Shown: positions 34,788 through 48,549 of the stretch, piece by piece
How the letters are laid out: each line of letters opens with the position of its first letter
Numbering within the stretch: position 1 is the stretch's first letter
Source: Candidatus Latescibacterota bacterium
GTDB lineage: Bacteria; Latescibacterota; UBA2968; GCA-2709665
DNA: 64,000 bases
Assembly (NCBI GenBank): GCA_965219995.1
Contig: CBDCOX010000002.1
Coordinates: 1,344,001-1,408,000, forward strand
Reading direction: 5' to 3'
Program-made: the position numbers and the translations under genes
The notes under the pieces: generated by a model
What the model was told of the DNA's origin: nothing
The model's input: the letters and a program-made list of their open reading frames with translations, nothing else
Database searches by the model: none

Positions 34788-37700
34788 TCAGGTGCCAACC
34801 GAATTGTAAGCGAGGTTGAACACGATGTCGGTCATCAAACGCTTGAAGTCCTTGTCGTCCATATACCGCTTGAACAGTTCGGTGTCATCCTTCATCACTC
34901 CGGTCATCACGCGCAGCAGCGCCTTGTCGTGCTCGATCCGCGCATTCTGCCGGTCGGAGTTCACCCTGGCGTTTCGGAACGCGGTGTCGGCGGCCACGCG
35001 GGCGGGAATGGTTTCAATGATGAGCTGTTCCACGCGGTCGCGATCTTCCCATTGAATATCACCGAAGTGTTCGTTGAAGTCCCGAAGTATGTTGGAAAGC
35101 CGGTCCAATTCCAGCTCCGGTTGATGTCCTCCACCCGCCGCCGGTACCGGATCGATCTCCGCATCCTCGTCCGGCAACAGGATATGTTGCATCGCCCGCT
35201 TCTCGACCCGGTAGCTGTCCAGATCGATCGCATCGAGGATCCCTTTGGAAAGGTCCTCCTCCTCGGGAGCGGGTAACTTCGGGACCAGGAAGTTGAGGAA
35301 AATCGAACGCTTTTCCCATTCCGCATCGTTGTATGGAAGAATGGATGAAAGAAAGGCGTAGGTCCGCACGAAAGCCTTGGCCCTGCCCTTGAACGCGACT
35401 TGGCCGTCTTCGTCCAGATCGCTTCGATAGACCGCAACACAAGCATCCAGGATTGGATCGAGACGGTCGCGCTCGGCCCCTTCCAGGTAGAGCTGCACAA
35501 ATTCGTCAATCTGCACATCCGAATAGACCTGTGCGCCGTCCAGGTCCGCCTGCAGGTCATGGAGCTTGTTCGGGTCGGTCTCGTCGGCCAGAATCGTCGT
35601 CCGGTAGAAGTCTGCGAAAGCGTCGCGGATGGTGTCCGTATCGTTAAGAAAATCAAGTACGAACACATCGTGCTTCTTCGGCTGAGCGCGGTTCAGGCGG
35701 GAAAGCGTCTGCACGGCCTTGATGCCGGACAGCGTCTTGTCCACGTACATCGTGTGCAGCAGGGGCTCGTCATAGCCGGTCTGAAACTTGTCCGCGCAGA
35801 CCAGGAACCGGTAAGGGTCCTCCCGGAATCGCCCGGCGATCTGCGTCGAGGGCAGGCCGTTCAGAGACGCCTCGCTGACCTTCCCACCGCCGTATTCGTG
35901 CTCCCCTGAGAAGGCAACCAGAGCCTGGTACTGGCTTTTCCGCTCCTTTAGATAGTTTCGGATCGCGTGATAGTACTGAATCGCGCGCTCAATGCCGTTT
36001 GTAACGACCATAGCCCGCGCCGATCCGCCGATCTTTCCCTGCTTCAACACCTGGTCGTGGAAGTGGTCGACCATGATCTCGGCCTTGAGCCGAATCGCGT
36101 GGTCGCTTCCTTCAACGAACCGACGCAGCTTCCTCTGTGCTTTCCGGATGTCGAACTCGGGGTCGTCTTCAACTGTCTTGGCGAGCTTGTAGTAGCTGTT
36201 CACGGGCGTGTAATGGGCGAGAACGTCGAGGATGAATCCTTCCTGAATGGCCTGCTTCATGGTGTAGCTATGGAAGGCCCGATGGCTCACCGTACCGTCG
36301 GGCTGCGGGTCCGGCGCGCCGAAGATCTCGAGCGTCTTGTTCTTGGGCGTGGCGGTAAACGCGAAATAACTGGCGTTGGGCAACAGTTTCCGCGACTCCA
36401 TCAGGCGGTTGATCCGGTCCTCGAAGGTATCCTGATCGTCATCTTCTCCCGCTTCCGACAGCGCCTGCGCCATGGCCGCGCTGGTGCGTCCCCCCTGGCT
36501 TGAATGGGCTTCGTCGATGATGATGGCGAAGCGCTTGCCCCGCTGTTCGTTCCCGATCTCGTCCAGGATGAACGGAAACTTCTGGACCGTGGAAATGATG
36601 ATCTTCTTTCCGCTTTCGATGAAACGGCGTAGATCTCCCGAGGCGTCTGCGTGCCCTACCGTCGCCGCCACCTGGGCGTACTGTTTGATGGTGTCGCGGA
36701 TCTGCCGGTCCAGGATGAGCCTGTCCGTGACGACGATGATCGAATCGAAGACAGGAGCGTCGTCCTTCTCCAACCCGATCAACTGGTGGGCGAGCCAGGC
36801 GATCGAGTTGCTCTTCCCACTGCCGGCGGAATGTTGGATCAGGTAGCGCTGCCCGGCGCCTCGTGCGGCCGCATCGTCCAGCAGGCGTCGTACCGCGTCG
36901 AGTTGATGGAAGCGCGGCCAGACCTGGGTCCTTCGGTTCTTACCGCTCTTCTCGTCCTTCGATGCCACCACTTGCGCGTAGTTCTCGAGGATGTTCGCCA
37001 GACTCTCGCGAGTGAGAACTTCCCGCCATAGATAGGCGACCGCGAGACCGTTCGGGTTGGGCGGATTGCCCGCGCCGTCGTTCCAGCCGCGGTTAAAGGG
37101 AAGAAACCACGACGCCTTCCCCTTCAGGTCCGTGCAAAAACGCACCTCACGCTCGTCCAGCGCGAAGTGCGCGATACACCGCCCGAATCCAAACAGCTTT
37201 TCTCGCGGGTTCCGGTCTTTTCGATATTGCCAGACTGCATCGTCCACCGTCTGTTTGGTGAGGCTGTTTTTCAATTCGAACGTGAACACGGGCATCCCGT
37301 TGATGAACAGGCCGATGTCCAGCGCCCGCTGCGCCTCGTCCCGGCTGTAGCGAAGCTGGCGGGTGACCGTGAAGCGGTTTTGTTCGAAGCGTTCCTGCGC
37401 GCTGGGGTTGTCGGTCGAAGGCGTGCCGTAGAACAGATCCAGGTACAGCGGTCCGTGCTTGATCCCGTTGCGCAGCACGTCGATGGTGCCGCGCTTGTTG
37501 ATCTCGCCCTGCAGCCGATTCAAAAACGCGCGCCGCGTCGGTCCGTCCTCGGAAAGCGAGAGCGACTCGGTGGCTTCGGGCTGGGTTATACGCAAGAATG
37601 CCGACAGTTGCACCAGATCGACGCAATACTCCCGATCGTAATCGTGGGGATTGCCGCAACTCCAGCCAACGCCCCCATAGCCGACATGGGGTTCTGCCAC

Positions 37701-37790
37701 GGTGCCCGTGGTCGGCGGCTCGCAGGCATTGCCCGTCAAGCCGGTGCAAATCAGGCGTTCAAGTCCGCGTTCGGAGGTGTCGGTGGGCAT
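34788..37790 (-). CDS. hsdR: Type I restriction enzyme subunit R
   Basis: LDIGLFINGMPVFTFELKN nuclease motif, HSAGSGKS, DEAH, FTATPK, KFQTGYDEP, QTLSRLNR. Confidence 0.96.
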   Translation of the reverse strand: MPTDTSERGLERLICTGLTGNACEPPTTGTVAEPHVGYGGVGWSCGNPHDYDREYCVDLVQLSAFLRITQPEATESLSLSEDGPTRRAFLNRLQGEINKRGTIDVLRNGIKHGPLYLDLFYGTPSTDNPSAQERFEQNRFTVTRQLRYSRDEAQRALDIGLFINGMPVFTFELKNSLTKQTVDDAVWQYRKDRNPREKLFGFGRCIAHFALDEREVRFCTDLKGKASWFLPFNRGWNDGAGNPPNPNGLAVAYLWREVLTRESLANILENYAQVVASKDEKSGKNRRTQVWPRFHQLDAVRRLLDDAAARGAGQRYLIQHSAGSGKSNSIAWLAHQLIGLEKDDAPVFDSIIVVTDRLILDRQIRDTIKQYAQVAATVGHADASGDLRRFIESGKKIIISTVQKFPFILDEIGNEQRGKRFAIIIDEAHSSQGGRTSAAMAQALSEAGEDDDQDTFEDRINRLMESRKLLPNASYFAFTATPKNKTLEIFGAPDPQPDGTVSHRAFHSYTMKQAIQEGFILDVLAHYTPVNSYYKLAKTVEDDPEFDIRKAQRKLRRFVEGSDHAIRLKAEIMVDHFHDQVLKQGKIGGSARAMVVTNGIERAIQYYHAIRNYLKERKSQYQALVAFSGEHEYGGGKVSEASLNGLPSTQIAGRFREDPYRFLVCADKFQTGYDEPLLHTMYVDKTLSGIKAVQTLSRLNRAQPKKHDVFVLDFLNDTDTIRDAFADFYRTTILADETDPNKLHDLQADLDGAQVYSDVQIDEFVQLYLEGAERDRLDPILDACVAVYRSDLDEDGQVAFKGRAKAFVRTYAFLSSILPYNDAEWEKRSIFLNFLVPKLPAPEEEDLSKGILDAIDLDSYRVEKRAMQHILLPDEDAEIDPVPAAGGGHQPELELDRLSNILRDFNEHFGDIQWEDRDRVEQLIIETIPARVAADTAFRNARVNSDRQNARIEHDKALLRVMTGVMKDDTELFKRYMDDKDFKRLMTDIVFNLAYNSVGT

Positions 37791-38148: not shown

Positions 38149-38905
38149 TTAAACTTCCTCAGGCATAATGTCAATTGGCGTGCGTCCCGGGAACCAGCGA
38201 GCGGAACTGGTGTTTCCTTTTTTGTGGATCTGTCCTTCAACCCTTAAATCCTGGATCAACCTCTGGACCTGAACATACGAAAGAGCTGGCAGTACTTGAA
38301 CGAGTTCACGTAATCGACTCCCTTCTTTCCGGTTATCTTGAATGTGCTTCAGCAACAACATCTTATTCGTCCGACGGTCCAATCCACGCTTGCGCGTGTA
38401 GACTCCCGCCTTACCGATGTGCCGGTAGAATCGCCGGGACAAAAGCAGCCGTGCGCTCCGCCCACGACCCGAGCGTACGATGATCCCCCGTTCCAGCAGA
38501 GGTTCGATCCTCGGTTTAAGGTCGTCGGAAATTGGCTGTTCGCGATGGACGAAATCGACCAATAATAGATCGTCAAGTCCAAACAAGGCGACCTGTTCCT
38601 GCCCGATCTCCTCCAAAAAGCGTAAAAACTCCGGGTCTTGAATGTCACCGCGTAATGTGAGCCATACGGTGTGCGCGTCAGTATGGGAGAAGTCTGGCAA
38701 CGGCTTACTCTGCTGAATACACTCGCGAAATATGCTGTCAAACCCCTGTCCGGCCCGTTCAACCAAACCACATTTGCCGAGAACTTCCGCGATACGGCGA
38801 TTACGTGGATTTTGTTGTCGAAGGATATTCTCAGAGGTTATGCCCGGTGGGAAACCACCAGGACTCACGATCTCAATGCGCCGAGGGTACTGGCGTCTGA
38901 TGCAG
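38149..38905 (-). pseudogene. 5'-truncated ATP-binding/RecG-C-like protein (HATPase_c_4 + wHTH; AlbA/Schlafen-type family)
   Basis: RQYPRRIEIVSPGGFPPGIT...PRNRRIAEVLGKCGLVERAGQG is normally an internal domain. Similarity starts abruptly near 38905 with no N-terminal domain. Confidence 0.75.
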
Positions 38906-39031: not shown

Positions 39032-39454
39032 CTACACGTTCGTGTACGGGTTGATGACCCGGAGGCCGTTGTAGTCCTGTTCCGTACTCAACTCTTCGGA
39101 ATAAACGGCGTCGCAGCCCAGGGCGAGGGCCGCGGCGAGAATTGCGCCGTCCCAATAGGACAGCCCGAAACGTTGGCTGATGGCGATTGCTGCAATGAAC
39201 AAACTGAGAGTGATGTCCTGCACCGGAAAGTGACTAATGCTCTCGATGAATTGCAGCGCGTGGTCCTGGGTGATCGCTCCAGGACGGCTGGAGCGCGTAG
39301 ACTGGTGATAGAACTCCTGGAGTACCTGGACGGACAACGCAAGATCTCCCTCTTCCAGCAGCCGTTGAGCCGAACGCTGCTTGCCGGCTTCATCAGGAGC
39401 GGGGCTGGCCGCGTATATCAGAACGTTCGTATCGACAAAGCGCACGGTGCTCAC
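39032..39454 (-). CDS. vapC: PIN-domain toxin (VapC)
   Basis: FVDTNVLIYA, SVQVLQEFY, LSYWDGAILAAA, YSEEL, INPY. GTGA overlap with the antitoxin. Confidence 0.93.
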   Translation of the reverse strand: MSTVRFVDTNVLIYAASPAPDEAGKQRSAQRLLEEGDLALSVQVLQEFYHQSTRSSRPGAITQDHALQFIESISHFPVQDITLSLFIAAIAISQRFGLSYWDGAILAAALALGCDAVYSEELSTEQDYNGLRVINPYTNV

Positions 39455-39792
39455 CCGCTCTCGGGATCCTGGCGTTCGACAGCGGCCGCTGCCTCGGCTT
39501 CGGCCCTTGCCGTGGCCCGGTCGTACAGCTCCTCTCGAGACAGGTTGTCGGCGGCCCTGAATCCGGGTGAAGTGGTGCGAATTTTCTCTATGACCTCGCT
39601 CAACATCCTACGCCGACGCTTGGCCTCCGGCTCCGTGACCGTCCCGTTGTCGGCTGCGCCGCCTGCGCGGTCCGATGCCAGACTCTTCAGGTAGTCTCGC
39701 ACGAGGGCCGATACCGACGTGTCCAATTCTGCCGCACGGATGCGCGCGAGCCGATGTGTCTCTTCGTCGACGGATACGGTGATATTTCTCAT
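39451..39792 (-). CDS. Ribbon-helix-helix antitoxin (VapB-like)
   Basis: MRNITVSVDEETHRLARIRAAELDTSVSALVRDYL, LSREELYDR. Directly upstream of vapC. Confidence 0.88.
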   Translation of the reverse strand: MRNITVSVDEETHRLARIRAAELDTSVSALVRDYLKSLASDRAGGAADNGTVTEPEAKRRRRMLSEVIEKIRTTSPGFRAADNLSREELYDRATARAEAEAAAAVERQDPESG

Positions 39793-39803
39793 AGTCACAG
39801 CCT

Positions 39804-39831: not shown

Positions 39832-40002
39832 TTAGCCGGCCGAATACCCGCGACCGGGCGGGCGGCCATCCTGATCGGCAGTGTCAAACAGGTATCCATT
39901 GGCCAACCGGTCCCACCCCTTTTCTGCCGCCGTATCGACTGAGTGTCCGGGGAATTCCCGCCTGAGGGGCCTGGGCGTACCGTGATCAAACGGTATCTTC
40001 AA
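39832..40002 (-). pseudogene. Truncated DUF5615 PIN-like toxin
   Basis: Hand translation from TTG 40002: MKIPFDHGTPRPLRREFPGHSVDTAAEKGWDRLANGYLFDTADQDG... stops after 56 aa. Overlaps the DUF433 stop codon. Confidence 0.75.
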
Positions 40003-40234
40003 GGCTGCTCACCGGCACGGGCGCCTTCAGGGAGTCGGCCACGTATTGCAGGACGGCTCTCACCTTCCATTCGTCGACGGGCGCGAACCACTCCATGAAC
40101 TCCTCGATGGTGGCGCCGGCCTCCAGGTTCTCAAACAGGACGGATACGGGCAGTCTGGTGTCGGTGAAGAGCCAGGCGCCGCTGACCTTGCCCGGGATTC
40201 GCTCCACCCCAGGGCACTTAGACCAATCAATCAT
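39986..40234 (-). CDS. DUF433 antitoxin
   Basis: MIDWSKCPGVERIPGKVSGAWLFTDTRLPVSVLFENLEAGATIEEFMEWF. Confidence 0.9.
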   Translation of the reverse strand: MIDWSKCPGVERIPGKVSGAWLFTDTRLPVSVLFENLEAGATIEEFMEWFAPVDEWKVRAVLQYVADSLKAPVPVSSLEDTV

Positions 40235-40475: not shown

Positions 40476-40503
40476 GTAGGGGCGACCGGCCGGTCGCCCC
40501 TAC
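40476..40503. repeat. GTAG-type REP palindrome
   Basis: GTAGGGGCGACCGG|CCGGTCGCCCCTAC, a perfect 28-bp palindrome that contains the hsdS stop codon. Confidence 0.8.
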
Positions 40504-41930
40504 GTCGTTGGATGATCTGTCATGTGGTCTTCTGACGACTCTTGGGCGTCGCCAGAGACGTCGTCCTCACGCAATTCAGCCGCCTCCTCGCGCACGTCCA
40601 GCTTTCCAGTGACGACATCGGAGACCAAGCGGGTTCGGTACTCACGGAGGAGCTCGATCTGACGGTTAGCGCGGCTAGCATTGGTGTTCAGCCTTGAGAT
40701 ACGTGCTTCGATCTGTCGCACGATTAAGCCTTGCTCACAGACCGGCGCAATCGCAATTCCTCTAGAACCGATTCTATCAACATTGAGATTGCCCTGTGTA
40801 TTTACTGGCGCCTCGCGTACCAACTCCGGCTTCATTGCTTGAAATACATAGAACAGATAGTCTCGCTCCACGCCTTTTCGAGGGACGAATCCGACAACAC
40901 TGTCTGGAAAGCACGCCTCGAAGTCGAGAACTGCGACATCGCCAATGTTCGCGGCGATTGTCATTGCAAGCGTCCCGGCAGGGAACATCTGGCTCACGGC
41001 GAGTCCATTGTCGTTGAGGGTCTGCATGTACCTTGTTATAGCCTTTTCCGCACGAGCTACATCGCCCGTTTGAATAAAGGGATACGGCCCGTCATAGAGA
41101 GAGGCGTCGTTTCGTGGCCTGTGTGTGAACTTTCCCCTCAATATCTGCGCCGTCTGTTTCACTCGTGTCAATTTCCAATGCGCCGGCACCTCTCCCAGCC
41201 ACTCCACACCGGAGTTCTTGTATGCCGGGTACGGCCGACCGGTTCGGACGTCGATCTGGCCCGTGACGGCCTGGTGGATGATGGCCTGTTTCTGCACCTC
41301 CAGCAGCGCAATCAGCTTCTGTTTGGCGCGGATGTAGCGCTGGATGCGCCTGTCGGCGTGGTCGAGGAAGCGGACGATAGCGGTTTGTTCGGTGAGGGGC
41401 GGGAGTGGGAGCCACACCGATTTGATGCCAGTGTGAGAGAGCCCATATCTGGTTACGCCTTTCGCCTCGATATGGAATTGATAGGCCAGACCTTTGCTCT
41501 GCAAAGCACGGAGCAAATAACCGCCCGCGAGCTCATCAGTTCGTGGACGCAGCATCGCCAAATGATAGCCTGAAATAAGATCGGTCGCAGGCTTAGTTAC
41601 CAATGCTGGCACTCCAATATCATCCCATGTCTCGGAGTCCTTGGTGATGAGGACATCATCTTTCTCAAGTCGGAAACGATCAATCTCCTCATCGGTAGCG
41701 GTCGCCTGCATGAAGTTAATCTGTTCATTGATGTAGTCATTCTTGTAGACATCAACATAGTTACAAAGACGGACCCGCTCCTCATCCTCTCTTACGTGTT
41801 TATCCACGTTGCTTACTCGCATATCTATTACATTCTGAAGACGTCGCACCTCCCAATGTGCCGGAATGCCTCCGAGCCATTCGACGCCAGAGGGTTTGTT
41901 TTCTGGATAGGAGTGGGGAAATTGAGCCAT
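40500..41930 (-). CDS. hsdS: Type I restriction enzyme specificity subunit
   Basis: Two TRDs, each preceded by SGVEWLG.(I/V)PAHW; PLPPLTEQTAIV; EYRTRLVSDVVTGKLDVR. Confidence 0.96.
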   Translation of the reverse strand: MAQFPHSYPENKPSGVEWLGGIPAHWEVRRLQNVIDMRVSNVDKHVREDEERVRLCNYVDVYKNDYINEQINFMQATATDEEIDRFRLEKDDVLITKDSETWDDIGVPALVTKPATDLISGYHLAMLRPRTDELAGGYLLRALQSKGLAYQFHIEAKGVTRYGLSHTGIKSVWLPLPPLTEQTAIVRFLDHADRRIQRYIRAKQKLIALLEVQKQAIIHQAVTGQIDVRTGRPYPAYKNSGVEWLGEVPAHWKLTRVKQTAQILRGKFTHRPRNDASLYDGPYPFIQTGDVARAEKAITRYMQTLNDNGLAVSQMFPAGTLAMTIAANIGDVAVLDFEACFPDSVVGFVPRKGVERDYLFYVFQAMKPELVREAPVNTQGNLNVDRIGSRGIAIAPVCEQGLIVRQIEARISRLNTNASRANRQIELLREYRTRLVSDVVTGKLDVREEAAELREDDVSGDAQESSEDHMTDHPTT

Positions 41931-41938
41931 TAGAGACC

Positions 41939-42886
41939 TTATACTACTGGGATTCGCATCGTTGTCGATATGCCCCTGCTATAGTCGCCGACAAGATCGC
42001 CGTGTTGCCCTAACACGTAGAATGGATTTACGGCAATCGACACGGAAGAGTTCATATGCAAGGGGAAGTCACGAGGAAACAAACGTATCAATTGGCACAT
42101 CTCGTGAGCACGGGGATCACTGTTGGTTGACGCTACTGATTCGAGCGTTTCTTTAATCCGGTTTACGAGATATAATCCGGAAAACAGAGAAAAGAACTCC
42201 ATGTAGGAGAACACTCCGAACTTTATTCCGTCAATCATGGAGAACCGTGAATCGTTGTCCTCATCAGGTAGAACCGGCCCTACAATTGGTAGCCTCTCGT
42301 TGGTATGGGCCCCCTTCTTGACGGCCATGAGGTATAGAATGGATCGTGCGTCGAATTGCATTTCGTTAATATTCAGCAGCTTCGTTTTCATCCACTTACT
42401 GAACTTGACAGTTGTGGTCGAGGTATCAAACGGGCTAGAAAGAATAGTCCTACTTTCCGATTCATGGTAAATCCCATACAACGCATGCAATGAAACTGTA
42501 TGATCAAATGGAGGGATCTTAAGAGCGCGTGAAGATCCATCGGCGAAGTTTAATACACACTCTTGCCCTTTGAAAGACTGCGTTGCACGTAACGTCTTAG
42601 CGTTTTCTGGAGGCGCTTTCATAGGATGCATTTCGGGATTGACTATACATCGCTTCAACAACGACCCGTTTCCGTCCAGGAGTATCTTTCTAAGGGCGAC
42701 CGATATCTGTCTCGTTTTCGCAAGCATGAGGGTACCGGAAGGAGAATGCCGACGAGCGATCTGTCCGAACTCTTCAAGAGCAGTTGCAATCTCCGATACG
42801 CATTCTAATAGTATGAGAACCGTGGTCTGATGCACACTCGGGCGAATCTGCCACAGCATTGTCTGCCAGCTATTGTCGGCTTTCAT
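41939..42886 (-). CDS. Hypothetical protein (315 aa) embedded in the Type I R-M operon
   Basis: Long AT-richer ORF. Its ATG overlaps the TGA of the hsdM-tail copy, and it ends 8 nt before hsdS. Confidence 0.75.
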   Translation of the reverse strand: MKADNSWQTMLWQIRPSVHQTTVLILLECVSEIATALEEFGQIARRHSPSGTLMLAKTRQISVALRKILLDGNGSLLKRCIVNPEMHPMKAPPENAKTLRATQSFKGQECVLNFADGSSRALKIPPFDHTVSLHALYGIYHESESRTILSSPFDTSTTTVKFSKWMKTKLLNINEMQFDARSILYLMAVKKGAHTNERLPIVGPVLPDEDNDSRFSMIDGIKFGVFSYMEFFSLFSGLYLVNRIKETLESVASTNSDPRAHEMCQLIRLFPRDFPLHMNSSVSIAVNPFYVLGQHGDLVGDYSRGISTTMRIPVV

Positions 42887-43098
42887 TCTTCAATCCCTTC
42901 GGAGGCAACCTCTCGTCCGGTTAACTCCGCTAAGAGCACCTCCGCCGTATTTTCAAGCGCCAGGATTTCAGCCCGAATCTCCTCCAGTGTCCGCATTGGT
43001 TGTGGTCTGTCGAAATATCGCATAAAGCTGATCTCGTATCCGATTATTACACTGATCGATTGGTACCACGCGTCAGTGGCAGATGGCAGGCCCGCGCG
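42883..43098 (-). pseudogene. Diverged duplicate of the hsdM 3' end
   Basis: RAGLPSATDAWYQSISVIIGYEISFMRYFDRPQPMRTLEEIRAEILALENTAEVLLAEL versus HsdM REVLPYAGDAWYQQDSVKIGYEISFTRYFYKPQPMRTLEEIGADIRALEKETEGLLGDL. An in-frame TAA lies upstream at 43123-25. Confidence 0.9.
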
Positions 43099-43122
43099 GC
43101 ATTGGCTACCAAATGGGCTGAA

Positions 43123-43449
43123 TTAGCCATGATTTTCTTGAGTTCTATTGGTATTCCACTCTTGCATCTCTTGAGGAAGCTTCGAAGAGGGTTTTGACGC
43201 AAGATTGTTAAAAATACTCGACTATCCTCGAGCGATTGGTCAACCCCAACCCTGTGATCGCAGTAGTAAGCCAATGCCGCATATACATCTGAGAGGGTTA
43301 AATCGTAATCACCGACAATTTCGTCGGCGCTCGTGCCAGATACCGATATTTACCACGGTAATTCGATGACCGGCAATACGAGGTTTGCCGCCTAAAATAC
43401 CCGGGGTGATCTCAATATGCTGATTCTGGATTTCCGTCGTCCTTTTCAC
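43123..43449 (-). pseudogene. Frameshifted DUF433 gene
   Basis: QHIEITPGILGGKPRIAGHRITVVNIGIWHER / frameshift / ADEIVGDYDLTLSDVYAALAYYCDHR. Confidence 0.8.
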
Positions 43450-43558
43450 CTTCAGTTGAGTTTGGCGCCGGTCACGGAGCCCTCACGTTCATCGCCGACA
43501 TTAAAGAACAACCTGGGTCAGGGCATCACTCGCTCTTGCGCTTTCGTTTCCCTTCGGG

Positions 43559-43774
43559 TCAGCCGTCGCGACGATTTGTTGGCTGGACCTGCGTTGATTC
43601 GCGTATCCGCGCGGCCATTGCTTCCAGCATGGGGTCGGAATACCGCCTGGAATTGAACCACTCCACCGTTTCCTTTGCAGTCATGTCGGCGGTTTCGGCA
43701 GTATTGCGGGCGCGGGCCTTGCGCATGAATTCGACACAGTCGAAATTCTTCTTGTGGCTGGGGCTTTCAGACAT
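43559..43774 (-). CDS. Small PIN-associated partner (putative antitoxin), copy 2
   Basis: MSESPSHKKNFDCVEFMRKARARNTAETADMT...RYSDPMLE; clear paralog of 44039-44242. Confidence 0.7.
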   Translation of the reverse strand: MSESPSHKKNFDCVEFMRKARARNTAETADMTAKETVEWFNSRRYSDPMLEAMAARIRESTQVQPTNRRDG

Positions 43775-43855
43775 GGACGATTTTCTCATGGGCTCGATTG
43801 TCGATCGTGGCGTATCCATTGACGCCGTTGCAGAGCACGATGTGCATGAATCCTT
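43768..43855 (-). pseudogene. Eroded 3' remnant of a second PIN gene
   Basis: FMHIVLCNGVNGYATIDNRAHEKIVHV* resembles the PIN tail FRHMVN...YNAVN...GYEELNVLSPEAISY. Its stop overlaps the start of partner copy 2. Confidence 0.45.
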
Positions 43856-44038
43856 CTATGCGGGAAAAGGCTCTAGGTCGGGGATCATGGAGTTACCCAT
43901 AGAGAGTATCTCGTACTTCGCGATTGAATAAACCAAAAAGACCCGCAACGTCGGCAATGATTCAGTCAAGCGTCCCGACTCGCTCGTCCCGATGCCTCGG
44001 TACGGTCTCGCCGTGCCGGCTGCTTGTCAAGCCATTGA

Positions 44039-44242
44039 TCAGGGTTCATTCTCTTTGTCTTTTTCCGATTCGCGCAATGGCGCCGCCAGTCGTTCCAGAA
44101 CAGGATCTTCATAGCGATACGTGCGATAGTACTGGATTCGCTCTGCAGGGCTCATGCCGGCTGTTTCTGCGGCAATCCTCGCACGAACCTCACGCACAAA
44201 GCGGATGCAGTCGAACCTCTCGGTTGCGGTATCATTTGTCAT
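44039..44242 (-). CDS. Small PIN-associated partner (putative antitoxin), copy 1
   Basis: MTNDTATERFDCIRFVREVRARIAAETAGMSPAERIQYY. Start overlaps the end of the HsdM-PIN gene. Confidence 0.75.
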   Translation of the reverse strand: MTNDTATERFDCIRFVREVRARIAAETAGMSPAERIQYYRTYRYEDPVLERLAAPLRESEKDKENEP

Positions 44243-46673
44243 AGCTGATCGCCTCCGGGGATAGGACGTTCAGTTCCTCGTACCCCATTTGCCGGTTGAC
44301 TGCGTTGTACAACCGGTTTCGTCGCCAGTTCACCATGTGCCTGAAATTCCAGCTTGCCATAACGTCGGCCTCAGCCAGGGTTACCAGGGCGATATGCTCC
44401 GCGTCGGCGCGGTTCGCAAGGCCAAGAGCCCCGGAACCAATGTATGCGTCCGCAAGCCGTTCTGCCTCATCTGTGAGAAAGAGCATCTCTTTGTTCGCAG
44501 CGGGAATCTGATCGATCACATTGCGCACGCTTTCTGGTGCCCCCGCCAGTTCCCTGAGAATGACTTCTGAATAAACGAGGATAGCATCTCCGCGCTTGAA
44601 CTTATCAAACAACTCCATGGATGCCTCACGGACCTCCTCGTCCAGACACCCGCCGATCACCGAGGTGTCCACGTAGATGCGCGGCTTGCCGTACACAGCC
44701 GGCGGTTCCCGCACCATCGGCAGGTCGCCGAGTAACCCCTCGGTCTCTTTCTCCAGCGCTCTGATATCCGCCCCGATCTCCTCCAACGTCCGCATCGGCT
44801 GGGGCTTGTAGAAGTAACGCGTGAAGCTGATTTCGTAGCCGATTTTCACGCTGTCCTGTTGGTACCAGGCGTCACCCGCGTAGGGCAGGACCTCCCGCTT
44901 CAGGAAAGCTTTGATGCCGCCCTCGTCTTGCAGCGGAATCTGTTCTGTGTCGCGCAGGTCTGTGTCCGGTTCGTACTCGACGACGGTCGGCTTGCCGTCG
45001 AGAGTCGCCTCGAACCGGCCGCGCAGCGGGTCGGCTTCCGTGCCTCTCTTGTGGACCTTTTTGATGACGGGCTGCGCGGTTTCGCTACGCTCGAAAGTCT
45101 CCTTTAACTTCTTGATTTCGGAGGCCTTATAGGCGCGGTTGGGGTCAATCCCTTCGAGCCGTAGCGGTCGTTCGACCGTGACCTTCCAGTAGCCAAAGGC
45201 GGCGTTGTCGAAGATCTTGCTCTGTTCGGTTTCCTCGAACGCCAGAAAGGTGTCGCAGATGCGCTGGATGTCTTCCTCGCCGAGTTCGCAGTTCTTTTTC
45301 CCCAGGTTCTTGCGCAACGGTCGGTACCACTCGGTGGCATCGATCAGCTGCACTTTGCCCCGGCGATGCTCCGGCTTATTGTTGGTGAGTACCCAGACGT
45401 AGGTGGCGATGCCGGTGTTGTAGAACATGTTGAGCGGCAGGGCGACGATCGCTTCCAGCCAGTCGTTCTCGATGATCCAGCGGCGGATGTTGCTCTCGCC
45501 CTGCCCGGCATCGCCGGTGAACAGGGAACTGCCGTTGTGCACCTCGGCGATGCGGCTGCCGCCCTCCTTCACCTTGGATAGTTTATTGGCGAGAAAGAGC
45601 ATCTGCCCGTCGCTGGAACGTGTGACCAGCGAATATTCGGGATCGTCCGCGTGCTCAATCACAAAGCGCGGGTCCCGCATTTCCTTCTTGCCGCCCATGC
45701 GTTCCAGATCGGTCTTCCAGCTCTTGCCGTAGGGCGGATTGGAGAGCATGAAGTCGAACTCCCGGGACGGGAAGGCGTCGTTTGCGAGGGTGGAATGCTC
45801 CGGTCCGCCCACGATGTTATCGGCCGCGTCTCCTTCACCCTTCAGCAGCAGGTCGGCCTTGCAGATGGCGTAGGTCTCGGCATTGATCTCCTGGCCATAC
45901 AGATGGGTGGAAACCTGTTTGTCGCGCTCGGCGGCGAGTTGCTGAAGTACGTCTTCTGCCACGGTCAACATGCCGCCTGTACCGCATGCGCCGTCGTAGA
46001 TCAGGTAGGTGCTGGATGTAATCTCGTCAGCGACGGGCAGAAAGACCAGCTTCGCCATCAACGTGACGGCGTCGCGCGGGGTCCAGTGTTCGCCCGCCTC
46101 CTCATTGTTCTCCTCGTTGAATCGACGGATCAGCTCCTCGAAGATGGTGCCCATGCCGTGGTTGTCCAGGCCGGCGTGCCTGACCGTTCCGTCGCCGTTC
46201 TGCACAGGATCCGGGCTCAGGTTGATGTCGGGGGACGTCAGCTTTTCGATCAGCGTACCGAGGGCGTCGGCCCTGGAGAGCCGCGGGATCTGGATCCGGA
46301 ACTCGAAGTTTTCAAGGATGTCCTGGACGCTGGGCGAGAACCCGTCGAGCCATGCTCTAAAATCGGCCTCGAGCTGCTGGCGATTGGCGCGGGCGCGCAG
46401 GTCGCGCAGGGTGAACTTTGATGTATTGTAAAAAGCCTGTCCCGCGACTTGTCGCAGGGTTGCGTCCTGCTCGACAACCCCGGCCTTGTCGAGGTTGGTC
46501 TTCATGTCGAGGACGGCCTGCTTGCTGTCTTCCAGCACCGCGTCCAGCCGGCGCAGTACGGTCATCGGCAGAATCACGTCCCGGTACTTGCCGCGCACGT
46601 ACAGGTCGCGCAGAACGTCGTCTGCGATTCCCCAGATGTAGTTTGCGATCCAGTTCAGGTTGGCATTGCTCAC
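44232..46673 (-). CDS. hsdM: Type I restriction-modification methyltransferase subunit M with a C-terminal PIN domain fusion
   Basis: YRDVILPMTVLRRLD, GEHWTPR, DGACGTGGM, SNPPYG, FYNTGIATY. After the normal C-terminus it continues KPRIYVDTSVIGG...RELA...ADAEHIA...SWNFRH (PIN, 44232-44687). Confidence 0.95.
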   Translation of the reverse strand: MSNANLNWIANYIWGIADDVLRDLYVRGKYRDVILPMTVLRRLDAVLEDSKQAVLDMKTNLDKAGVVEQDATLRQVAGQAFYNTSKFTLRDLRARANRQQLEADFRAWLDGFSPSVQDILENFEFRIQIPRLSRADALGTLIEKLTSPDINLSPDPVQNGDGTVRHAGLDNHGMGTIFEELIRRFNEENNEEAGEHWTPRDAVTLMAKLVFLPVADEITSSTYLIYDGACGTGGMLTVAEDVLQQLAAERDKQVSTHLYGQEINAETYAICKADLLLKGEGDAADNIVGGPEHSTLANDAFPSREFDFMLSNPPYGKSWKTDLERMGGKKEMRDPRFVIEHADDPEYSLVTRSSDGQMLFLANKLSKVKEGGSRIAEVHNGSSLFTGDAGQGESNIRRWIIENDWLEAIVALPLNMFYNTGIATYVWVLTNNKPEHRRGKVQLIDATEWYRPLRKNLGKKNCELGEEDIQRICDTFLAFEETEQSKIFDNAAFGYWKVTVERPLRLEGIDPNRAYKASEIKKLKETFERSETAQPVIKKVHKRGTEADPLRGRFEATLDGKPTVVEYEPDTDLRDTEQIPLQDEGGIKAFLKREVLPYAGDAWYQQDSVKIGYEISFTRYFYKPQPMRTLEEIGADIRALEKETEGLLGDLPMVREPPAVYGKPRIYVDTSVIGGCLDEEVREASMELFDKFKRGDAILVYSEVILRELAGAPESVRNVIDQIPAANKEMLFLTDEAERLADAYIGSGALGLANRADAEHIALVTLAEADVMASWNFRHMVNWRRNRLYNAVNRQMGYEELNVLSPEAISYDK

Positions 46674-46840
46674 TTTACCGCTACTCCTCGAAATAGGACT
46701 GCAGATTTCCTGGCAGCTTTGGGCTTGTATGACTTCCTTTCAAACAAGACAAAGGCGGATCGCCCATAGGGAACCCGCCGTGATGCCAAGTGAGTTTACC
46801 GCAGCAGTTTTCCGTCGGCGTGATACATGATGACTATCTG

Positions 46841-47158
46841 TCACCTGGTCCCGGCGGCAAGGGCAACTACAAAGATGAACAGATAGATGAACATAAACAC
46901 AAGGATGCTGGCGGCCAATCCTAACCATGCACCGCGTATCTGCTTGGTTTTCATACGGTCACAGTAGGCGCGTTCGAACGCCACCCCATCTTCTGCTTCC
47001 CGTGATCTTTGAAGAAAAATGAGTGGAACACGAGGCTCGATAAGGTGGGCAACAAAAACAGCCGGCAGCCACGTTAGAAAACCGAAGAGACCCCATAAGA
47101 ATACAGACTTATCATCTGCTACCAGCCTGCCTTCGCTCGAGCCTCTGTCGCTGTTCAC
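46841..47158 (-). CDS. Small two-TM hypothetical membrane protein
   Basis: GTG at 47158 after AAGGAGG; two hydrophobic segments. Confidence 0.65.
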   Translation of the reverse strand: MNSDRGSSEGRLVADDKSVFLWGLFGFLTWLPAVFVAHLIEPRVPLIFLQRSREAEDGVAFERAYCDRMKTKQIRGAWLGLAASILVFMFIYLFIFVVALAAGTR

Positions 47159-47195
47159 TGTGTCCTCCTTGCTGTAGAAATTCTTGCGTCGCCGA

Positions 47196-47214
47196 CCCTT
47201 CGACAAGCTCAGGG
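47196..47214. repeat. REP-like motif CCCTTCGACAAGCTCAGGG
   Basis: Matches, from memory, a widespread bacterial intergenic repeat. Single copy in this window, near the right edge of the R-M island. Confidence 0.55.
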
Positions 47215-47373
47215 AGCGGCTTAGTTCGCGCGAAAATTTCAATCCGGGTGAGTCGACGGCTGAATATGTACTTTCAGGTTCTGGGACATCACACCAAGTG
47301 GGGTTTCTGTTACAATGCTCGACATCTTACTGTCTTCGTATCCCGTGTTTTCGCCAAGGATGTGTGCCTTCCC

Positions 47374-48549
47374 TCACCCCCGGTTTCCTCCTCCCCACGC
47401 GGACGAGAACTGGTCGCCGTCGATGAATCTGGAGGGGCGGAACGGGTGCAGATCGAACGCAGGTGTCCGGCCGAGGATCATGTCGGTCAGCGAATCGGCG
47501 ATGGGAGGTCCCAGCTTGAACCCGTGTCCGCTCCCGCCGAAGAAGGCGTAATAACCATCAAGTCCGGGTTCAGGCCCGACCAGGGGATGCCAGTCGTCGG
47601 TAATCGTATAGACCGACGCCCATCCCTTCACGTATTCGCAATTCCGGAACGCCGGCACGCGTTCGAAGGTCCCGTCCTCGATGCGGCGGCGCGTGGGTTC
47701 ATCCAGGTCCGGATCGTACGCGTCGACGTCCATCGGCTCCACCTCTTTGGGAAAACTCAGGCCGGCCAGCAGCCCGTTGTCGCCGTCGGGTCGGAAGTAG
47801 ACTCTCAGATTGGGATCCGAAACCACCGGAAGCGGCCCGTATCCCTCCGGCAGGCGCAAGACCAGATCGCTCTCCCGGCTCCATCGCAGCGAATAGTTCA
47901 GCCCCACGGACAGTCCCATCCGGCGCCCCCAGGGACCCGCGGCGTTGATCACCAGACCGGTCCGGATTTCGCCGGCCTCGGTTTGCACCCCGGTCACCCG
48001 GTTGCCGGACAGGCAAATCCGCGTTGCCCCCACCCCCTCGTAACACGCCAGCCCCCATTCCTTCGCCCGCGTCACCAGGCTCCGGACCGTCTTGACGGGG
48101 TCCGCATACCCGGAAGCAGGTTCGTAGATGCCCGCGACGATCCCGTCCGTGTTCACACCGGGAATCAGCTCCCCGATCTCGACCCTGTCCACCTCCACGG
48201 CGCCGGTGCCGTTCCGCTGCTCCGCCTCGAGCACCGCCCGTCCCGCCGCGGCGGTTTGCTCGCCCAGAACACAGATATATCCCGTATTGCGAAAGTCGCA
48301 GTCTCCTCCCAGCGCCTCCTCCCCGTTCGCGAACATCTCCAGCGCCGCCGCGGACAACCGAATGGTCAGGTCATTCGTGTAAAACGTGCGGATCACAGCG
48401 GCCGAATGCCCCGTACTCACGGCGGCCAGCGACCGTTTTTCCAGGAGAACGACGTCGCCGAGGCCCTTTTTCGCCAGAAAATGGGCCGCGCTTGCCCCCA
48501 TGATCCCTCCGCCGATCACCACCGCATCTGCTGTCGTACCCATTCGCAT
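47374..48549 (-). CDS. FAD-dependent oxidoreductase (DAO/sarcosine oxidase beta-like)
   Basis: VIGGGIMGAS, STGHSA, INAAGPW, TDDWHPLVG, GSGHGFKLGP. Confidence 0.92.
   Translation of the reverse strand: MRMGTTADAVVIGGGIMGASAAHFLAKKGLGDVVLLEKRSLAAVSTGHSAAVIRTFYTNDLTIRLSAAALEMFANGEEALGGDCDFRNTGYICVLGEQTAAAGRAVLEAEQRNGTGAVEVDRVEIGELIPGVNTDGIVAGIYEPASGYADPVKTVRSLVTRAKEWGLACYEGVGATRICLSGNRVTGVQTEAGEIRTGLVINAAGPWGRRMGLSVGLNYSLRWSRESDLVLRLPEGYGPLPVVSDPNLRVYFRPDGDNGLLAGLSFPKEVEPMDVDAYDPDLDEPTRRRIEDGTFERVPAFRNCEYVKGWASVYTITDDWHPLVGPEPGLDGYYAFFGGSGHGFKLGPPIADSLTDMILGRTPAFDLHPFRPSRFIDGDQFSSAWGGGNRG

Follow-up and report, generated by a model that had tools for sequence, protein, structure and literature searches.

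The 64,000 nt window analysed here (contig CBDCOX010000002.1 of a Candidatus Latescibacterota bacterium, assembly GCA_965219995.1, positions 1,344,001 to 1,408,000; coordinates below are those of the window) carries a Type I restriction-modification (R-M) locus in which the hsdM gene, for the methyltransferase subunit, reads on through a short linker into a C-terminal domain predicted to be a VapC-like PIN nuclease, and is followed at once by a small overlapping gene, termed here the partner. Cognate hsdS and hsdR genes lie on the same strand as this hsdM-PIN gene, with a separate vapBC-like pair between them. The features on which the argument turns are the following.

44232..46673, (-) strand: hsdM-PIN fusion open reading frame (ORF), a single open frame of 813 aa with a GTG start
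44724..46673, (-) strand: HsdM body, residues 1 to about 650, with HsdM_N, N6_Mtase and a C-terminal helical tail ending ...GYEISFTRYFYKPQPMRTLEEIGADIRALEKETEGLLGDL (Pfam, PADLOC, unfused relatives)
44682..44723, (-) strand: linker, about residues 651-664 (PMVREPPAVYGKP...), conserved among fusions and holding an internal ATG at 44717
44232..44681, (-) strand: predicted VapC-like PIN domain, residues 665-813, plus stop codon, with candidate active-site residues D669, E708, D757 and N776 (AlphaFold, Foldseek/VIA, homologues)
44039..44242, (-) strand: cognate partner gene, 67 aa, a probable antitoxin (co-variation, synteny, natural fusions)

The HsdM-PIN fusion

In order, the open frame encodes a Type I HsdM that is intact, a linker of 14 residues and a domain of 150 aa. 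By its domain content the protein is classed as an HsdM, combining HsdM_N (PF12161, residues 9-145, 3.3e-19) with N6_Mtase (PF02384, residues 171-483, 3e-54), the S-adenosylmethionine (AdoMet) motif I and the catalytic NPPY motif IV. The PADLOC Type I methyltransferase model MTase_I (PDLC03029) matches the fusion protein at 2.3e-238, and the NCBIfam hsdM equivalog gives it a score of 97.9, below the cut-off of 242.75. A first-pass annotation of this DNA had described motifs I and IV as intact, and neither (DGACGTGG, NPPYG) varies over an alignment of 29 fusions. It had further described a normal HsdM C-terminus ahead of the linker, which agrees with the unfused relatives; these stop 10-15 residues past ...ETEGLLGEI, the short forms ending ...ETEGLLGEILGASQQPIST or similar, which confirms that the HsdM of the window is complete ahead of the linker. 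The linker itself is conserved across this alignment. Over phyla the HsdM body shows unusual conservation, with 70-97% identity between fusions of Acidobacteriota, Pseudomonadota and Latescibacterota, which suggests a very mobile Type I system. A scan of 41500-47400 for promoters and terminators gave nothing better than shuffled sequence.

The junction between HsdM and the tail, near 44700-44750, is not an assembly error. Contigs of four coded public runs were compared with the window over 44000-46700, and those of three runs (X1, X2 and X8) bridge the junction with zero indels. The X1 contig (44066-45420) has 0 differences to the window across the junction and the X2 contig (44000-45420, depth 87) has 0 differences to it, one or both of these runs possibly being the source sample of the window; the X8 contig (44000-44811), with 10 substitutions and 0 gaps, comes from a different strain in which the frame is kept. 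Nor is the fusion confined to one genome. With the PIN region as query against proteins of 447-1423 aa (1394 candidates, E<=1e-3, 90%-identity clusters; all counts from protein searches are minimum values), at least 105 clusters with a PIN tail were found, 104 of the 105 having N6_Mtase (PF02384), with PIN identity running from 100% down to 48%; where NCBI names these clusters, the name is 'N-6 DNA methylase' only. In a search for HsdM relatives, 8000 candidates were scored and the closest 120 clusters taken (86-100% identity over residues 1-640), among which 37 reach 800 aa or more, 81 do not exceed 690 aa and 2 fall between. Fused open frames of at least 825 aa are found in 9 of the 15 species genomes of the window's genus (the window's counted), a fused open frame is also found in one genome outside the window's family, and the full fusion occurs in species-representative genomes of Latescibacterota, Pseudomonadota and Acidobacteriota. 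The HsdM-PIN fusion is thus real, in frame and recurrent.

A read-through artefact or decaying junk, produced by a sequencing or assembly error or by recent loss of a stop codon and leaving a fusion without selected function, would find some support in the degraded forms that exist, since P0400 and P0426 have a truncated PIN with only about its first 20 residues before a stop, P0012, P0020 and P0022 are HsdM fragments joined to PIN, and orphan pieces occur; the natural M-V at the junction could, moreover, be an old start codon. However, such an origin is scarcely credible given that independent contigs bridge the junction, that at least 105 clusters keep the frame open while the PIN diverges to 48% identity, that each key residue is retained by at least 102 of the 103 fusions, and that the fusion is shared by three phyla. 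The internal ATG at 44717, to which the first-pass annotation had drawn attention, is present. That it starts a separate PIN protein is doubtful, as the start codon is not conserved (relatives have ATG, TTG, CTG or, in L012, part of GCG-ATT at this position) and the upstream GAGG is about 18-21 nt away. Other joinings were seen in passing: in P0470 (759 aa) the HsdM C-terminus continues into a GmrSD_N (DUF262) segment, and the PIN family is also fused to other N-terminal parts (L033:1232-2995; P0269; L051:3373-4188), namely 440-aa and 270-aa regions without a Pfam family and a DUF2283 domain.

The identity of the tail as a PIN domain rests on Pfam matches of its homologues and on its fold, not on a match of its own. 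The C-terminal 160-170 residues of the window's protein have no Pfam or NCBIfam match even at E up to 10, NCBIfam and PADLOC hold no model for the domain, PDB sequences searched with a profile from the PIN alignment gave nothing below E 0.2, and the PIN profile did not align significantly to the VapC encoded in the window (hhalign, probability 0.13). Among 59 aligned homologues, however, 34 match PIN (PF01850), 24 match PIN_3 and 13 match PIN_12 at E<=0.01. An AlphaFold model built on the 59-member alignment reached a predicted local distance difference test score (pLDDT) of 93.6 and a predicted template modelling score (pTM) of 0.87; a Foldseek search with it gave 9 matches at E<=1e-3, 8 of them VapC/PIN proteins and 1 a cyclodehydratase, and upon VIA re-alignment all 50 entries shown were PIN proteins (Z 10.2-13.1), with VapC21 at the top (Z 13.1, root-mean-square deviation 3.0, 124 residues aligned). 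The tail is predicted on these grounds to be a VapC-like PIN domain, and the PIN call of the first-pass annotation holds through the homologues and the fold, whereas the window's own domain lends it no family match.

The candidate active site was placed by the order of strands and helices and by motifs, rather than by superposition. By this assignment D669 follows strand 1, E708 is in the helix that comes next after strand 2, D757 opens the long helix and N776 follows strand 4, a place taken by Asp/Glu in VapC. Across 103 full-length fusions D669, N776 and H760 are each kept in 103, and E708 and D757 each in 102. The motifs VDTS, RELA, ADAEH and SWNF, put forward earlier as retaining the active-site residues of the family, are all present and the Asp/Glu/Asp set is kept; the claim fails at the fourth acidic position. 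Of the four canonical PIN acidic residues, three are therefore retained. The fourth position holds Asn in 103/103 fusions and, among 235 free-standing forms, in 224 (Asp in 5/235), although the motif at this site reads SWDF or SWDY in several natural proteins in which PIN and partner are joined. Given the retention of catalytic-type residues across the fusions, the PIN domain is under purifying selection in its fused state.

The partner gene and the free-standing module

The ATG of the partner at 44242 overlaps the TGA stop of hsdM-PIN (44234-44232) by 11 nt, with GGAGG 9 nt upstream of it, and the encoded protein contains FDCIRFVR, as expected from the earlier description of a 67-aa gene with an FDCxxFxR motif lying across the stop codon. 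A partner profile was built from the two copies in the window and one other, and 80 loci, one genome per species, were scanned with it; a homologous small ORF lies directly after the PIN gene in 75 of them, usually overlapping the PIN stop by 8-17 nt, and BLAST additionally recovered the partner of L011, which falls outside the start-position window of the profile scan. The two proteins are also found as natural single chains, 10 in the order PIN-partner and 4 in the order partner-PIN among 367 PIN-bearing proteins, and in a model of one of the former (P0248) the partner part is folded as three short helices (pLDDT 84-92). First-partner identity tracks PIN identity with r=0.90, against r=0.51 for HsdM (45 pairs from 10 fused loci), values that are descriptive only, as the ten loci are related. 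The partner is probably the antitoxin of the PIN domain. The partner corresponds to no named family, as 40 partner members gave 0 consistent Pfam matches and no antitoxin or DNA-binding family, NCBIfam and PADLOC have no model for the partner, and its neighbours in Atlas are all 'hypothetical protein' clusters. In some fused loci a second PIN downstream is itself a PIN-partner chain of 234-293 aa (L013:6688-7458, L019:6955-7836, L061:6728-7432), with the SWNF motif replaced by TWCG or SWDY.

The pair is also found apart from hsdM. A word-indexed search returned at least 216 free-standing relatives of 88-282 aa, and in an exhaustive search the cluster representatives at E<=1e-3, most of them 150-160 aa long, form a large family of at least 2831 (900 at E<=1e-10). 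The analysis thus brings to light an extensive family of PIN and small-partner gene pairs whose partner is without family assignment. The window's genome itself has a second, free-standing PIN of 158 aa, 42% identical, overlapping a 57-aa partner (G000:C2:3268969-3269427; L002 1495-2128). On sequence comparison, PIN and partner form a two-gene module, the PIN gene leading, that is widespread in free-standing form. Of 126 neighbouring genes scanned around free-standing pairs, most are housekeeping genes; a small number are transposases or other toxin-antitoxin genes, and about 5 are restriction or defence genes. This heterogeneity resembles the distribution of mobile toxin-antitoxin pairs. A dedicated partner, taken with thousands of free-standing clusters, makes a self-contained toxin-antitoxin pair the first choice for the nature of the module.

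Cassette turnover and the possible role of the fusion

Two further features, downstream of the partner in the window, bear on the history of the fusion.

43559..43819, (-) strand: orphan second partner, partner2, likely start near 43765, 45% identical to the window's partner
42922..43098, (-) strand: scar, a displaced copy of the HsdM C-terminal tail (corresponding to residues 593-651; 68% identity) that has a stop of its own (tblastn and translation)

Over the 29 aligned fusions the PIN is less conserved than the HsdM body in 398 of 406 pairs (median identity 54% vs 79%), the two identities are only weakly correlated (r=0.23), and some HsdM proteins that are 91% identical carry PINs just 58-60% identical. 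Sister species bear different PIN alleles on near-identical HsdM, each allele with a co-varying first partner, and have 2-4 partner paralogues apiece. In genome G009, four partner genes come after the window's PIN allele; the G006 locus carries a PIN allele 'B' (about 60% identical) with its own partner, then partners of two other types, another B-type partner and a displaced HsdM tail; in G014, two partners accompany allele B. In G001 a third PIN allele and its partner are followed by an orphan piece, consisting of the last 60 HsdM residues, a PIN 92% identical to the window's and the partner of that allele (97%), and then by another tail remnant. The window's partner2 shares 67-71% identity with the first partner belonging to allele B in sister species, about 50 nt of the 3' end of an allele-B PIN are left upstream of it, and this PIN-B end together with partner B has 83% nucleotide identity to G014 (L096). 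Orphan arrays, tail-plus-PIN pieces and scars are thus spread over G001, G006, G009, G014 and the window, with tail scars in G006 and the window.

A PIN tree was built from 201 of the 367 PIN domains, after removal of rows at least 70% identical, and a second tree from 85 of those 201. In one well-supported clade of 54 rows, 31 of the 32 non-redundant fused PINs are found together with orphan and unfused copies, and the fusion P0302 lies outside it. A single fusion event was considered, but a strict clade of the 38 fused rows was rejected (approximately unbiased test, p-AU 8e-10), which makes for a history less simple than a single capture. Repeated exchange of cassettes is in agreement with the tree.

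These data may be set against the proposal that the PIN domain assists the restriction enzyme in its own work, for example as a nuclease on RNA, R-loops or flap DNA encountered in translocation, with the partner as a specificity or assembly factor. The PIN-like superfamily spans DNA flap nucleases as well as RNases, according to the relevant portion of Matelska et al. 2017 (PMC5499597), the partner lacks an antitoxin-like family and the candidate catalytic residues are conserved, all of which would suit such a role. However, the best structural matches are VapC toxins and not FEN-like nucleases, most HsdM relatives work without a PIN (81 of 120 are unfused), the PIN and partner pair occurs in unrelated contexts, and the PIN alleles diverge fast and are swapped, a pattern typical for conflict modules but not for the core of an enzyme. 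An accessory function is, on balance, quite improbable.

As judged from its relatives, the PIN domain with the overlapping 67-aa gene is a captured copy of the common free-standing two-gene module in which the PIN gene comes first. We infer that the PIN domain would be a toxic RNase and the partner its translation-coupled antidote. Tentatively, and at a little under an even chance, we prefer the reading that this captured toxin-antitoxin cassette stabilises the hsd locus. In the portion of the M.EcoKI study by Kennaway et al. (PMC2647291) drawn on here, HsdM's C-terminal helices reach the HsdS coiled-coil, with minimal contact when Ocr is bound. Because the HsdM C-terminal regions reach that coiled-coil, each M2S or R2M2S complex would carry two tethered PIN toxins beside it, silenced by the partner. 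The module would make the hsd locus costly to lose or replace, as upon loss of the locus or the cassette the stable tethered toxin would outlast the shorter-lived partner and the cell would be harmed. Type I systems tolerate their own loss via restriction alleviation. A cassette could be swapped by recombination through the conserved 3' end of hsdM, with survival possible only for cells that retain the old partner, and this predicts just such orphan partners, orphan tail-plus-PIN pieces and tail scars as are seen here. The first-pass annotation had offered both an addiction module and a guard nuclease as explanations, and the addiction option fits the orphan partners and displaced cassettes better than the guard option.

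The module so read resembles VapBC in its VapC-type PIN fold (Z 11-13 to many VapC), in its Asp/Glu/Asp site and in being a two-gene module scattered over genomes. Unlike VapBC, it has the toxin first, Asn as the fourth residue and a toxin fused to a 650-aa enzyme, and the partner (40 sequences) has neither the DNA-binding domain of VapB nor a Pfam family.

An extension of the addiction reading, which is possible but somewhat unlikely, would make HsdM the carrier of a polymorphic, cassette-switching PIN toxin, with arrays of antidotes accumulating as survivors keep the antidote to the toxin still present on old complexes. Orphan arrays of toxin tips and immunity genes are a feature of polymorphic toxin loci such as CdiA-CT/CdiI and Rhs. 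Like these, the hsdM-PIN loci combine a conserved large carrier, a variable C-terminal putative toxin and a candidate protective gene immediately downstream, their orphan tips retain part of the conserved region, and extra orphan candidate protective genes are present. In contrast to these, HsdM is cytoplasmic and without a secretion or delivery apparatus, so that any conflict would be intracellular, between alleles or with mobile DNA; no secretion-related domain was found by Pfam or PADLOC in the fusion protein or the other locus genes scanned. If true, the locus would provide an intracellular counterpart of the orphan arrays of contact-dependent inhibition (CDI) and Rhs systems, and a form of allele-level addiction and exclusion for Type I R-M loci.

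The guard alternative supposes a PrrC-like arrangement in which the PIN domain is inactive on intact M2S or R2M2S and is released when an anti-restriction protein or other insult disturbs the complex, whereupon it would cut host or phage RNA and abort the infection, with the partner as co-inhibitor or sensor. The PIN directly follows the HsdM C-terminal helices, near the part of the complex that is loosened on Ocr binding in the section of PMC2647291 cited above; both the fusion and its candidate catalytic residues are retained strictly throughout the 103 fusions, 37 of the 120 closest HsdM clusters have the fusion, and the linker is conserved. There is also precedent, as PrrC in EcoprrI serves as the model for the immunity-suicide coupling hypothesis in the pertinent passages of Makarova et al. 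2012 (PMC3506569) and Anantharaman et al. 2013 (PMC3710099). PrrC/EcoprrI (hsdMSR, Type Ic) is similar to the present locus in that an RNase toxin, a predicted one in the present case, is tied physically to a Type I R-M system within the hsd operon. However, PrrC is a separate protein with HEPN and ABC-ATPase parts, masked by the R-M complex and without an antidote gene, whereas here the PIN is covalently fused to HsdM and has a small partner gene of its own; neither a HEPN nuclease nor an N-terminal ABC-type NTPase of the PrrC/RloC kind was detected in the fusion or the partner by Pfam or PADLOC. Further, the module has its dedicated partner and in most genomes is a free-standing pair, so the R-M complex is not needed as an inhibitor, and a guard model gives no reason to expect arrays of orphan partners. 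We regard the guard as unlikely, though it is the main rival of the addiction reading.

Several points weigh against the preferred addiction reading. Covalent fusion is not needed for a plain addiction module, and the retention of the fusion in about one third of the HsdM subfamily may indicate a function tied to the R-M complex, which would favour the guard. The fused PINs do not form one strict clade, which was rejected as described above, the orphan partners could be neutral recombination debris rather than selected immunity, and the correlation between PIN and partner is drawn from related, non-independent loci. In addition, the partner matches no antitoxin or DNA-binding family and, unlike VapB, is located downstream, and the fourth acidic residue is Asn family-wide, so that the predicted catalysis is assumed. 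The addiction role and an added fail-safe role during phage attack are nonetheless compatible and would not be exclusive; if the reading is true, a toxin beside the HsdS coiled-coil might also report attacks on the complex.

The coupling of toxin-antitoxin or abortive modules to Type I systems is known as a hypothesis and from PrrC, and what appears new here is the covalent fusion of a PIN domain to the M subunit with polymorphic cassettes. In the available text of Matelska et al. 2017 (PMC5499597), PIN-type toxin-antitoxin genes are co-transcribed with Type I R-M subunits, and direct interaction between toxin-antitoxin and R-M components is stated as not shown. Those cases are alike in placing PIN nucleases in hsd operons, and the window has such a separate VapBC between hsdS and hsdR, but they are neighbouring genes, without an HsdM-PIN fusion in the text of section 17 (Supplementary Figure S7, outside that text, might show one). 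The passages of Makarova et al. 2012 (PMC3506569) that treat toxin-like domains on R-M subunits list HEPN, Sir2, ParB and REase, with DUF4145 on HsdR, and describe Type I and III R-M proteins that carry or adjoin predicted toxin domains; the cases named there are, unlike the present one, without a PIN on the M subunit, a dedicated partner or cassette turnover. The first-pass annotation knew of no described HsdM-PIN fusion, and likewise none was found in the passages returned by a full-text literature search that included the EVE-domain paper and an embedded-defence preprint.

The covalent and recurrent nature of the fusion means that the physical link between the predicted toxin and the R-M system needs no inference. 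That R-M systems are coupled to suicide toxins is a long-standing idea for which there is, to our knowledge, essentially one worked example, PrrC. The natural allele series, the putative orphan antidotes and the unfused sister enzymes provide ready-made controls, and the system would let stabilisation of the locus, exclusion of competing alleles and firing upon attack on the complex be tested directly.

The rest of the hsd locus

The remaining genes of the locus are listed below.

41939..42886, (-) strand: 315-aa ORFan of low GC content (0.47-0.50) between the cassette region and hsdS
40500..41930, (-) strand: hsdS, 476 aa, with two target-recognition domains (Pfam Methylase_S; PADLOC Specificity_I 5.1e-91)
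39986-40234, (-) strand: DUF433 gene between hsdS and hsdR
39832-40002, (-) strand: 56-aa ORF after the DUF433 gene, a candidate truncated PIN-like partner
39451-39798 and 39032-39454, (-) strand: VapB-like / VapC pair between hsdS and hsdR (Pfam PIN 2e-11)
38149-38868, (-) strand: 239-aa ORF in a low-GC stretch just upstream of hsdR, with only a C-terminal HATPase_c_4 ('RecG C-terminal'-type putative regulator)
34788..37790, (-) strand: hsdR, 1000 aa (NCBIfam TIGR00348 1.8e-57, below the curated cut-off; PADLOC REase_I 1.7e-43)

The 315-aa ORFan has no Pfam, NCBIfam, PADLOC or Atlas match and was not found in 60 related genomes; it belongs to the locus, if perhaps not to the module, and could be an embedded defence gene. 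The 239-aa ORF with HATPase_c_4 appears to be a truncated gene. VapBC and DUF433 genes resembling those of the window are present at the equivalent place in L008 and in sister species.

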